64,000 nucleotides of DNA, taken from Escherichia phage vB_EcoM_ESCO47. The stretch is from the sequence record OM386662.1; one strand, given 5' to 3'. How positions within the stretch are numbered: position 1 is the first letter of the stretch; the number at the start of each line of letters is the position of its first letter. Shown one piece after another: positions 22,350-25,925 of this stretch. The position numbers were made by a program, and so were the translations under genes. The notes under the pieces were generated by a model. That model worked only from the letters and a program-made list of their open reading frames with translations. It made no database searches and was not told the origin of the DNA.

Positions 22350-23266
<917 letters not shown>

Positions 23267-23267
<1 letters not shown>

Positions 23268-23458
23268 TGAAACTATTATATGAAGTGATTGAGGCCATCG
23301 AACAGCATAAAGAATATTTGTTTGTAGCCTGGCCTTTAGTAAATGGACAGTTCGGTATTGATGTGCTGGACTATGAGCATGAAGAACGTTTGGACGGTGG
23401 TATATTTGATAACGTCGACCAGGCAATTGAATGGTTAAATGAAAACTATGTACGATAA
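23267..23458 (+). CDS. Hypothetical small protein (cd.x region)
   Basis: 63-aa ORF starting at the pseT stop (TAATG). Confidence 0.45.
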
Positions 23459-23663
23459 ACATCATGAAATCGAAGATGAAGCATACAAAATGCTTCGTAA
23501 ACTAGTGGGACTTAATATGAGTCCTACATTAATCAACAAACTCGCAGGAATTCGTAATGATCTGAATACTCGTTACAAAGGCGAATATCATGTAGAGTTT
23601 GTTCCTGTAGGTGAACCGACCGAGCGATTTGTTGTTCGAGTTAAAGTAAATACTGTACACTGA
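23439..23663 (+). CDS. Hypothetical small protein (cd.x region)
   Basis: 74-aa ORF. Confidence 0.45.
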   Translation: MKTMYDKHHEIEDEAYKMLRKLVGLNMSPTLINKLAGIRNDLNTRYKGEYHVEFVPVGEPTERFVVRVKVNTVH

Positions 23664-23670
23664 GGTAATT

Positions 23671-23946
23671 ATGTTCCCAACTTATTCTGAAATTGTAAAG
23701 GTAGTCTTCAGTCAGATTATTGCTAATAATATGTTTGAAGTGCTTGATAATGCAGCCGAACTCAGAGTTCATGCTCAACTAACTCATGTACTCAATGCTT
23801 TGCTCCCGGACCAAGTAGATTCTATTGCTATTACTCTTCTCCCTGGGTCTGCACACGTCATAGTGGTATTTGATCTTGACGGCGATTTAGTTATCCAATG
23901 TGATATCAATTTCGGTACACAAAAAATTGAATGCAAAGCAATTTAA
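23671..23946 (+). CDS. Hypothetical small protein (cd.x region)
   Basis: 91-aa ORF with SD GAGG upstream. Confidence 0.5.
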   Translation: MFPTYSEIVKVVFSQIIANNMFEVLDNAAELRVHAQLTHVLNALLPDQVDSIAITLLPGSAHVIVVFDLDGDLVIQCDINFGTQKIECKAI

Positions 23947-23948
23947 TG

Positions 23949-23978
23949 GTTTACAACATGGTGGAGTTGTGATACTAT
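23949..23978 (+). promoter_or_regulatory. Early promoter (GTTTAC-N18-TACTAT)
   Basis: gtttacaacatggtggagttgtgatactat. Confidence 0.6.
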
Positions 23979-24006
23979 AACTCTACCAACAAATGAGGAA
24001 ATAGAA

Positions 24007-24243
24007 ATGCTAAGTGAAAACCCAATTACAGTACACGAATTTCAGATTAAAGTAAAAGAATTTGCTCAAGCACTCATCAATAAAGTGTCTGAACGTTTCC
24101 AAGATGCAACATTACGAGTTATTCAAGAATCTCCACGTTCTTTTCTCATAATCGTTAATCCTAAAGACGGTGACCAAATTACTAATCTTAAATTAGGCAG
24201 TGATGGTCTTGTTGAAGCAACTCGAGTATATGGAACACTATAA
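24007..24243 (+). CDS. Hypothetical small protein (cd.x region)
   Basis: 78-aa ORF preceded by early promoter 23949..23978 and SD GAGGAAA. Confidence 0.55.
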   Translation: MLSENPITVHEFQIKVKEFAQALINKVSERFQDATLRVIQESPRSFLIIVNPKDGDQITNLKLGSDGLVEATRVYGTL

Positions 24244-24351
24244 TGAGAGCTATCTCATTACTATCGAGAATGGTCATAAATCTGAGCACTACCAACTTAG
24301 CCTGTCTAATCCGGTTAAAGGTATTGTTGTTTATATCTCCTAAGGATTGTT

Positions 24352-25344
24352 ATGTTACCTGTCATCAGAAAACTTATTTCTCCAAAAGAACTGGCTGAGA
24401 TTATTCCTTTGTCGGAAGCTTACGCATCACAAGTGGCTTCTCATCGCGAACAAGTTAATTCGATTATGAACGGTGAAGACCCACGCAAACTTATTGTTGT
24501 AGGTCCTTGTTCAATTCATGACCCTATTGCTGCTGTTGAATACGGCAAACGTCTGGCTGAACTTCAAACTCGTCTTCCTAATGTTCTGTTAGTGATGCGC
24601 GTTTATTTTGAAAAGCCTCGAACTACCGTAGGTTGGAAAGGTCTTGTAAATGATCCATATCTTGACGGAAGTTTTGATATGAACCACGGTCTTATAGTTG
24701 CACGAACATTGTGTCGTAAACTTCTGCGTATGGGACTTCCATTAGCAACTGAAGTATTAGACCCATTCACGATTAAGTATCTTTCTGGTATTTTCTCATG
24801 GGTTGCTATTGGCGCCCGTACGACTGAAAGTCAGACACATCGTGAAATTGCTTCAGGTCTACCGATGTGCGTAGGCTTCAAGAACGCAACCAATGGTTCT
24901 ATTAAAGTAGCTACAGACGCGATGTATAGTGCCGCCCAGCCTCATCGGTATATGGGTATGGACGTCGATGGTACTGTAGGCATTGTTGAAGCTGAAGGTA
25001 ATCAGAATACGCATATCGTATTGCGTGGTGGGACTAACGGTCCGAACTATCATTCTTCTGATATTCAAGAAGCTTCTAACAAAGCAAGTGCGGTAGGTCT
25101 GAATCATTATGTAATGGTTGACTGTAGCCATGCAAACGCTGGTGGGTATTATAGCAATCAAATTGATATTGGTAAAAATTTAGCAGCTAATGATTTGGTC
25201 AAAGGAATTATGATAGAATCATTCCTACATGAAGGAAATCAAAAAATTTCTGATAATATGTCCTATGGCGTTTCCATTACCGATGCGTGCATCAGTTGGG
25301 AACAAACTAAAGAGCTGTTAACTTATATTAATAAGGTTCAATAA
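24352..25344 (+). CDS. 3-deoxy-D-arabino-heptulosonate-7-phosphate (DAHP) synthase, class I (AroF/AroG-like)
   Basis: 330-aa ORF with DAHP synthase signatures LIVVGPCSIHD, MRVYFEKPRTTVGWKGL, IGARTTESQTHRE, CVGFKN, MVDCSHAN, IESFLHEGNQ, YGVSITDACISW; SD AAGGA 5 nt before ATG. Confidence 0.9.
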   Translation: MLPVIRKLISPKELAEIIPLSEAYASQVASHREQVNSIMNGEDPRKLIVVGPCSIHDPIAAVEYGKRLAELQTRLPNVLLVMRVYFEKPRTTVGWKGLVNDPYLDGSFDMNHGLIVARTLCRKLLRMGLPLATEVLDPFTIKYLSGIFSWVAIGARTTESQTHREIASGLPMCVGFKNATNGSIKVATDAMYSAAQPHRYMGMDVDGTVGIVEAEGNQNTHIVLRGGTNGPNYHSSDIQEASNKASAVGLNHYVMVDCSHANAGGYYSNQIDIGKNLAANDLVKGIMIESFLHEGNQKISDNMSYGVSITDACISWEQTKELLTYINKVQ

Positions 25345-25925
25345 TGAAAGCTAGCACATATCTTCAAATTGCTTATTTGATTTCTCAAGAATCAAAATGT
25401 TGTTCATGGAAAGTTGGTGCCGTCATTGAAAAAGATGGACGCATTATCTCTACTGGATATAATGGTTCACCTGCAGGTGGCGTTAACTGTTGCGAACAGG
25501 CATCCGAAAATGGTTGGTTGAAGAATAAACCGAGTCCGGTCATCGTTGCTGGACATAAAGAAGGCACTACGGCATTTGGACGGGCAGATAATTTTGTTTT
25601 GGCTAAAGAACATCGAGCGGCTCATAGTGCATGGTCTGCTAATAATGAAATCCATGCTGAACTGAATGCAATTTTATTTGCAGCTCGTAAAGGTAATTCT
25701 ATTGAAGGTGCTACGTTGTATACGACGCTTTCTCCGTGTCCTGATTGCACTAAAGCTATTACACAGTCGGGTATTAAAAAGGTTGTATACGCAGAATTAT
25801 ATGACAGATCTCCTGAAAATTGGGCAGACATTCTTAAACAAGCTGGTATTGAAGTAATTCAGTACTCTCGTAATAATCTTCGTTCTCTGAATTGGGAACA
25901 AATCCGAAACTTTTGTGGTGAATAA
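25344..25925 (+). CDS. cd: dCMP deaminase
   Basis: 193-aa ORF MKASTYLQIAYLISQESKCCSWKVGAV...HAELNAI...LSPCPDCTKAI (zinc-deaminase motifs); same length as T4 Cd. Confidence 0.9.
   Translation: MKASTYLQIAYLISQESKCCSWKVGAVIEKDGRIISTGYNGSPAGGVNCCEQASENGWLKNKPSPVIVAGHKEGTTAFGRADNFVLAKEHRAAHSAWSANNEIHAELNAILFAARKGNSIEGATLYTTLSPCPDCTKAITQSGIKKVVYAELYDRSPENWADILKQAGIEVIQYSRNNLRSLNWEQIRNFCGE

Follow-up and report, generated by a model that had tools for sequence, protein, structure and literature searches.

Why should a T4-like phage carry, among its early nucleotide-metabolism genes, an enzyme that admits carbon into the shikimate pathway? The question is raised by an open reading frame (ORF) of Escherichia phage vB_EcoM_ESCO47 (sequence record OM386662.1), which lies in the 64,000-nucleotide (nt) stretch of DNA that was analysed here and is called the window. 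The ORF, at 24352..25344 on the plus strand, starts with ATG, is intact and encodes a protein of 330 amino acids (aa) with the features of a DAHP synthase (DAHP, 3-deoxy-D-arabinoheptulosonate 7-phosphate). A preliminary description of the locus had recognized these features and had proposed that the enzyme may escape feedback by aromatic amino acids. We confirm the observation and find support for the interpretation. The gene very probably specifies an active DAHP synthase that is expressed with the early nucleotide-metabolism genes, and its sequence suggests that this early enzyme is, on balance, one that escapes aromatic amino-acid feedback.

A type I-alpha DAHP synthase with intact catalytic residues

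At the level of the family, the window protein scores above the curated cut-offs of the relevant profile hidden Markov models (HMMs), in agreement with the AroF/AroG-type signatures that had been described for the 330-aa ORF. PF00793 (DAHP_synth_1) matches with 254.4 bits (E=1e-75; cut-off 25.5), the aroFGH equivalog TIGR00034 with 430.9 bits (cut-off 173.2), and the PRK12755 subfamily with 458.5 bits (cut-off 343). At the level of the isoenzymes the scores lie below the cut-offs, at 366.5 vs 568 for the AroG equivalog NF006723 and 387.9 vs 463 for the AroH subfamily NF009396. AroG had been chosen as the enzyme of comparison; that alignment is sound, but the closest E. coli isoenzyme is instead AroF, which is 50.8% identical to the window protein, versus 47.7% for AroG and 43.8% for AroH. 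The closest solved structure by sequence is also E. coli AroF (PDB 6AGM, E=3.6e-105).

The residues needed for catalysis were located in an alignment of 123 sequences, comprising the window protein, E. coli AroF, AroG and AroH, and 119 database homologues (MAFFT, together with HMMER alignments). The motifs GPCSIHD, DCSHAN, ESFLHEGNQ and SITDACI, previously put forward as the metal-binding segments, are present and align with the Cys, His, Glu and Asp metal ligands of AroF and AroG. The ligands themselves are C53, H260, E289 and D311, equivalent to AroG Cys61, His268, Glu302 and Asp326, and all four are invariant in the phage-type (24/24) and the cellular (99/99) sequences. Likewise, 12 residues of the site for phosphoenolpyruvate (PEP) and erythrose-4-phosphate (E4P) show no change in the window protein or across the phage-type sequences (24/24); in AroG numbering this set includes R92, K97-P98-R99-T100 (the KPRT motif at 88-91 of the window protein), E143, G163-A164-R165, K186 and R234.

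An AlphaFold2 model of the window protein has a predicted local distance difference test (pLDDT) score of 94.5 and a predicted template-modelling (pTM) score of 0.93. It superimposes on E. coli AroG and N. meningitidis DAH7PS (8E0U/4IXX/1KFL) with a template-modelling (TM) score of 0.96 and a root-mean-square deviation (rmsd) of 1.3-1.5 A. The (beta/alpha)8 barrel is present in the model, the two-stranded regulatory hairpin is kept (strands 198-203 and 209-214), and an N-terminal extension is there but is 8-9 residues shorter. The sequence and predicted fold of the window protein are those of a competent type I-alpha DAHP synthase; they are not those of a remnant in decay.

A rebuilt effector pocket

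Differences between the phage enzymes and their cellular relatives are concentrated at the allosteric site. A column of the alignment was called clade-diagnostic when it was at least 90% fixed both in the phage clade and in the cellular set, with a different residue in each. There are only six such columns in the 330-aa protein: I141 (AroG P150), K142 (Q151), G146 (D155), P171 (S180), Y200 (F209) and A214 (T223). All six lie within or beside the segments that form the effector pocket, and none is in the active site. Thus, the allosteric-site differences to which attention had been drawn are real, and they are the sole fixed differences between the phage clade and the cellular enzymes; the individual replacements quoted at the time, LDMITPQYL to LDPFTIKYL (including the position of AroG P150) and GLSCPVGF to GLPMCVGF, are correct. 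The canonical effector pocket is made of P150, Q151, S180 and F209 together with residues 6-8 from the N-terminus of the partner subunit. In the cellular set the four positions are occupied by P (93/99), Q (98/99), S (97/99) and F (98/99), and the odd sequence at each of them is itself a phage protein (P0037); the window protein has I, K, P and Y.

The N-terminal part of the pocket is also altered. None of the phage members has the residues at AroG D6, D7 and L8 (AroF N7, N8 and V9), which have been deleted, and M1 of the window protein aligns with AroG R9, making the N-terminus 8 residues shorter than that of AroG, as had been estimated. Because an in-frame stop at 24316-24318 is followed by no start codon before the ATG of the ORF, the N-terminus is fixed and the short form is not an artefact of start-codon choice. 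Homologues in other phage genera begin at the same point in the alignment.

The pocket was remodelled once and then kept, as the unusual conservation of its columns within the phage clade indicates. The mean entropy of 12 pocket columns is 0.20, versus 0.99 protein-wide, with 8/12 columns invariant, and random 12-column sets are as conserved as this with P=0.0005. The new I/K/G/P/Y/A residues are fixed across phage members of 57-98% identity. In addition, the alignment shows a pocket that has become more electropositive, by the gain of one lysine and the loss of D6, D7 and D155.

Inhibition by Tyr, Phe or Trp would likely be absent from such an enzyme, because several of the changed positions give feedback resistance when singly mutated in E. 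coli. Feedback-resistant single mutants described in reviews include AroG P150L and S180F, and AroF Q152I and N8K. A further feedback-resistance site, AroF P148 (AroG M147), is kept as in AroF; the proline that is changed in the phage enzyme is AroG P150, which corresponds to AroF P151. The roles given here to inhibitor contacts come from the reviews of feedback-resistant mutants and from the AroG-Phe structure.

From these features we infer an active enzyme, its early timing, its loss of feedback and a benefit to the phage, and a course of events can be proposed. Transcribed early from a promoter at about 23950 along with nucleotide-metabolism genes, and with a Shine-Dalgarno sequence of its own for translation, the phage DAHP synthase would convert PEP and E4P to DAHP in the infected cell. 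A single remodelling, in the common ancestor of the phage enzymes, altered the effector pocket at the dimer interface and left the catalytic barrel as it was, and the enzyme would work without inhibition by Tyr, Phe or Trp. Entry of carbon into the shikimate pathway would then be maintained regardless of the aromatic amino-acid pools and of the state of the host isoenzymes. That aromatic amino-acid inhibition has been lost, so that the shikimate pathway would be open in the infected cell, seems reasonably probable. Phe+Tyr+Trp make up 9.5% of the residues encoded by the window's long ORFs (Tyr 4.0%), which points to a substantial demand for aromatic residues.

Several points weigh against an early enzyme freed from feedback. 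Because D146, P147, G178, L179 and G211 (AroG positions) are kept in the window protein, binding of some aromatic amino acid is possible. Conservation of the pocket fits another ligand, or stabilisation of the dimer, equally well as it fits lost regulation. Any benefit to the phage would be conditional, since two relatives, RB69 and Mosigvirus mar005P1, manage without the gene, and in most Tequatrovirus phages, T4 and T2 among them, the gene is missing from the interval between pseT and cd. Finally, enzymology for any phage member was not found in the literature searched.

The conservation of the pocket raises the alternative that the enzyme is still allosteric and has been retuned to another effector, for which chorismate, prephenate, sugar phosphates and nucleotides would be candidates. 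Pocket columns that are more conserved than random ones and that hold fixed new residues are in line with this idea, as is the regulatory hairpin kept in the AlphaFold2 model, and the gain of a lysine with the loss of the three acidic residues is compatible with an anionic ligand. However, the conserved residues may merely stabilise the dimer interface or the active conformation, and retuning appears unlikely. If true, it would tie shikimate entry to the metabolic state of the phage, and a virus would have rewired the input logic of a gatekeeper enzyme.

Another possibility is that the phage makes an ordinary feedback-sensitive, AroF-like enzyme, which would provide extra DAHP synthase capacity while host expression is being shut off. 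AroF is indeed the nearest E. coli isoenzyme, and the window protein retains the Tyr-type residues P147 and G211 as well as D146, G178 and L179 of the pocket. However, four positions at which inhibition-abolishing substitutions have been reported are changed, the N-terminal segment is deleted, and the scores fall below the AroG equivalog and AroH subfamily cut-offs; we consider it improbable that regulation of the usual kind persists.

DAHP synthase homologues are also found in two phage-labelled records outside the T4-like group, Aeromonas phage HJ05 (locus L008, 3899-5062) and the gut 'Bacteriophage sp.' MT835504 (locus L015, 5944-7014). Each is ~36-37% identical to the window protein and has intact catalytic residues together with a non-canonical pocket, A-H-P-V in HJ05 and W-S-D-F in MT835504. 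The HJ05 protein carries a His-rich N-terminal extension (MDNHHNKHH...), and the MT835504 gene is positioned at a scaffold end. These two genes may be independent acquisitions. A convergent change of the pocket through residence in phages was considered for them and set aside, being not attributable at ~36% identity.

Transcription and translation of the gene

The position of the ORF between small cd.x-type ORFs and cd is as originally described. On the upstream side come pseT (22359-23267), which encodes polynucleotide kinase, and a set of four small cd.x-type ORFs (DUF7355, DUF7320). The immediate left neighbour of the segment that carries the DAHP synthase gene is a cd.2-like small early gene at 24007..24243 on the plus strand (DUF7320, phrog_1504), which is annotated as Cd.2 in mar005P1 and RB69. 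Downstream, on the same strand, is cd, the gene for dCMP deaminase (25344..25925), whose ATG overlaps the stop codon of the DAHP synthase gene in the sequence TAATG at 25342-25346. This overlap suggests translational coupling between the two genes. The DAHP synthase ORF has a Shine-Dalgarno sequence of its own, TAAGGA, at 24341-24346 on the plus strand, 5 nt 5' of the ATG, and a ribosome-binding site is annotated at the equivalent place in the related phage Mizar.

The gene had been said to possess its own Shine-Dalgarno sequence, to lack its own promoter, and to be transcribed from an early promoter at 23949. Consistent with the second statement, no plus-strand promoter-like site is found in 23978-24352. 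A promoter-like site of the T4-early type is present at 23950..23978 on the plus strand, in the space that separates the cd.3-like ORF from the cd.2-like ORF, and the promoter scan finds no other plus-strand site between pseT and the DAHP synthase ORF. The site consists of TTTACA, a spacing of 17 nt and TG-n-TACTAT (a 9/12 match with TG), and the annotation of phage SA35RD independently places a T4-early promoter at the corresponding position. The existence of the site and the SA35RD annotation agree with the earlier proposal, but the scan as a whole is not above shuffled expectation (17 sites vs 14.5 expected), and function of the site is for this reason no more than plausible. The site is the probable source of a transcript that would extend over cd.2, the DAHP synthase gene and cd.

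A dispensable cassette in a mosaic region

The DAHP synthase gene and the spacer in front of it form an accessory cassette of 1,101 bp, at 24244..25344 on the plus strand, that is present in about 139 Mosigvirus-type records. The cassette is absent from RB69 and Mosigvirus mar005P1, in which cd.2 adjoins cd; a three-way alignment of the junctions gives a difference of exactly 1,101 bp. An imperfect 19-bp direct repeat marks its ends. The left copy, ATAATGAGAGCTATCTCAT (24240-24258), repeats the cd start in degenerate form and marks the left edge of the cassette. The right copy, ATAATGAAAGCTAGCACAT (25341-25359), contains the DAHP synthase stop overlapping the cd start. The two copies are identical at 16/19 positions, and RB69 and mar005P1 have one copy only, in the right-hand version. 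Recombination between the repeats would remove the gene cleanly.

Two short ORFs cross the spacer. One, of 47 aa with a GTG start (24200..24343, plus strand), spans the end of cd.2 and the spacer, and its counterpart in Mizar is annotated as a hypothetical protein of 51 aa. The other, of 51 aa (24243-24398), overlaps the first, and its initial residues, MRAIS, lie in the degenerate copy of the cd start (the product of cd itself starts with MKAST). Klebsiella phage Marfa has no equivalent of either, and these two ORFs may not be real genes.

Comparison with Mizar indicates that the region is mosaic, because the cassette, pseT and cd differ in their identity to that phage. The cassette block, from cd.4 to the DAHP synthase gene (23267-25344), is 97-99.6% nucleotide-identical, and the DAHP synthase gene itself has accumulated few substitutions (0.036 synonymous substitutions per synonymous site, dS, in a comparison of nonsynonymous and synonymous rates, dN/dS). 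Identity of pseT is 76.5% in nucleotides and 83.9% in amino acids, with a dS of about 1.8; cd is 94% nucleotide-identical, and cd, 31.1, gp31 and rIII range over 88-96%. The boundary at pseT is sharp, which suggests an exchange of pseT alleles by recombination among Mosigvirus-type phages. A further peculiarity concerns cd of RB69, which is annotated as 510 nt (locus L010, 7743-8252) and is separated from gene 31.1 by an unannotated gap of 76 nt, whereas cd of the window and cd of Mizar each measure 582 nt. The short RB69 cd could be a truncation, or it could reflect a sequencing or annotation error in an old record.

Relation to arabinosylated DNA

The DNA of Mosigvirus phages contains arabinosylated cytosine derivatives, and a phage arabinose-5-phosphate (A5P) isomerase takes part in the route from ribulose-5-phosphate (Ru5P) to uridine diphosphate (UDP)-arabinose (PMC13326640). 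Phage HY126, which was used in working out the arabinosylation pathway, has a DAHP synthase that is 98.2% identical to the window protein. These facts bring up the idea that the phage DAHP synthase is a sink for E4P and PEP, which would draw transketolase flux toward pentose phosphates for nucleotides and UDP-arabinose or would offset the drain of Ru5P by the isomerase. The diversion of Ru5P to UDP-arabinose in Mosigvirus phages (PMC13326640) and the location of the gene among nucleotide-metabolism genes are in its favor, as is the joint occurrence of the two enzymes. A tblastn comparison with RB69 gp55, the isomerase, gives matches in 275 records, and the isomerase co-occurs with DAHP synthase in Mosigvirus, in Serratia phages, in Proteus phage phiP4-3, in EcS1, in SdyM_006 and in Enterobacter phages.

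However, the pairing is broken in both directions. The isomerase occurs without DAHP synthase in mar005P1 and in RB69, the phage that served to establish arabinosylated DNA. Klebsiella phages account for 25 DAHP synthase records, and Klebsiella is outside the ten commonest genera for the isomerase; Acinetobacter phages account for 57 isomerase records, and the one DAHP synthase record inspected from them is a mislabelled bacterial contig. An obligate link between DAHP synthase and arabinosyl-DNA was rejected on these grounds, and the overlap of the two genes may stem from shared ancestry. Because RB69 and mar005P1 lack the gene, it is dispensable and not required for DNA arabinosylation. A role as an E4P/PEP sink is decidedly improbable.

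A related proposal concerns the substrate. DAHP synthase and 3-deoxy-D-manno-octulosonate-8-phosphate (KDO8P) synthase both belong to PF00793, E. coli DAHP synthase accepts A5P weakly, and these phages raise A5P; the phage enzyme could have shifted, in the manner of KDO8P synthase, to the condensation of PEP with A5P or another phosphosugar. This is very improbable, in that KPRT and all other residues of the E4P/PEP site are as in AroF, AroG and AroH, the metal-binding Cys is kept, and the diagnostic substitutions are all outside the active site. Identity as a KDO8P synthase (KdsA) proper was rejected, since NCBIfam yields DAHP synthase models only and Cys53 and KPRT are kept, where KdsA would have Asn or an altered motif.

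Phage origin and distribution

That host DNA was mis-assembled into the phage contig, or that a host gene was captured recently, is a negligible possibility for which no supporting evidence was found, and it is rejected on four grounds. In none of 5,426 complete E. coli genomes does a match extend over 80% or more of the ORF, and the best ones reach 66-69% identity to aroF across no more than 31% of its length. The GC content of the ORF at third codon positions (GC3) is phage-like, the gene occupies this locus in 139 relatives that were sequenced independently (95-99% identity), and its stop codon overlaps the start of cd. The ORF has a GC content of 0.407 and a GC3 of 0.290, compared with 0.386 and 0.284 for the other long ORFs of the window and 0.518 and 0.504 for E. 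coli aroF. Being flanked by phage genes, phage-like in composition and conserved across phages, it has the attributes of a phage auxiliary metabolic gene. Thus, similarity to DAHP synthases, the metal ligands and the phage provenance of the DNA, on any of which the preliminary description could have foundered, have all held.

The gene had been singled out as a candidate for non-canonical cargo, but it is already known, catalogued and widely annotated. By tblastn, the protein is matched over its full length in 212 phage records, which divide into 139 with 95-99% identity, 47 with 60-80% and 26 with less than 60%. The first group consists of Escherichia and Shigella phages of the Mosigvirus type, for example ST0, SF, HX01, JS09, HY126 and Mizar, and the gene is present in about 90% of the sequenced Mosigvirus-type coliphages. 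In the majority of the phage records it is annotated as phospho-2-dehydro-3-deoxyheptonate aldolase, DAHP synthase or aroF. Within the PHROGs database the protein matches phrog_5045 with 602 bits, in the category 'moron, auxiliary metabolic gene and host takeover', and the nearest 90% cluster at NCBI (P0001) contains 164 sequences at 98% identity. Literature of 2020 mentions the gene in passing, as a Mosigvirus auxiliary gene of unknown function; full-text searches of the literature found no functional study of this phage DAHP synthase.

One of the four Acinetobacter phage matches to DAHP synthase was inspected. This 13-kb contig (L016, CAKLQH020000056.1, 'Acinetobacter phage MD-2021a') is bacterial DNA, in which aroF_2 lies beside cobS, cobT, cobU and a ribazole phosphatase gene. 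The mislabelled contig, with its cob operon, inflates the apparent spread of DAHP synthase among phages.

Descent within T4-like phages

In a neighbor-joining (NJ) tree the 25 phage-type proteins (319-343 aa) form one clade, recovered in 200/200 bootstraps, and divergence inside this clade is as deep as its distance to the cellular enzymes. The clade is placed beside E. coli AroF in only 98/200 bootstraps, and the best cellular matches, ~50-57% identical, come from scattered phyla; AroF was dropped as a candidate donor for these two reasons. The order pseT ... DAHP synthase ... cd is kept in Klebsiella phage Marfa (67% identity), in Proteus phage PM2 (58%) and in a metagenomic T4-like contig that carries the basal member P0020. 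All members with known context are on T4-like phage DNA, and P0021, the other basal member, adjoins a gene of the T4 Y05Q family. Vertical descent at one locus would be the simplest reading of these sequence relationships, and DAHP synthase is a long-time resident of T4-like phages.

The most basal of the DAHP synthases is found on a 29-kb contig of an uncultured T4-like phage (L012, Logan SRR28261677). This protein has the I-R-P-Y signature and 57% identity to the window protein, and the contig reads frd - td - ... - rnlA - alc - spanin - pseT - DAHP synthase - cd - ... - DNA ligase.

Significance and comparison with known systems

For a gene that is carried by many phage-therapy candidates, the analysis provides a sharp hypothesis, namely that it encodes a DAHP synthase that would be constitutively active or differently regulated. 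RB69 and mar005P1 are natural deletion controls for its role. In addition, the six substitutions would amount to a natural recipe for altering the regulation of a type I-alpha DAHP synthase with catalysis untouched, of relevance for the metabolic engineering of aromatic compounds, which now relies on single point mutants.

The nearest counterpart is the DAHP synthase of other Mosigvirus-type phages, which is the same gene: it has the same length, is 97-98.5% identical in amino acids and lies between cd.2 and cd. The surrounding window is ~88-89% nucleotide-identical to those phages, and the backbone diverges more than the cassette. Among cellular enzymes, E. coli AroF (6AGM/6AGL) has all the same catalytic residues and shares with the phage protein a Pro at AroG position 147 and a Gly at 211. 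It differs in that the phage protein is 26 residues shorter, 9 of these being N-terminal and including N8, and in that AroG positions 150, 151, 155, 180, 209 and 223 are occupied in it by I, K, G, P, Y and A. E. coli AroG (1KFL, 1QR7, 8E0U) and N. meningitidis DAH7PS have in common with it the fold of barrel plus regulatory hairpin; with respect to AroG, identity is 47.7% and the residues of the effector site differ.

Engineered feedback-resistant forms of AroG (P150L, S180F, D146N, L175Q) and AroF (N8K, P148L, Q152I) are used in metabolic engineering. Like these mutants, the phage enzyme is substituted at AroG positions 150, 151 (AroF 152) and 180 and has no equivalent of AroF N8, and at AroG position 175, the site of L175Q, it has a conservative change of L/M to I. 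Unlike them, it combines several changes with a deletion, these are fixed by evolution, and D146 and the equivalent of AroF P148 are unchanged.

A broader parallel is provided by the pentose-phosphate genes talC, zwf and gnd of cyanophages, which are auxiliary metabolic genes of central carbon metabolism. There, too, host-derived metabolic enzymes are kept in a lytic phage, where they presumably sustain biosynthesis. The phage DAHP synthase differs from them in that it acts in another pathway and in that the regulatory site, rather than catalysis, appears to have evolved.

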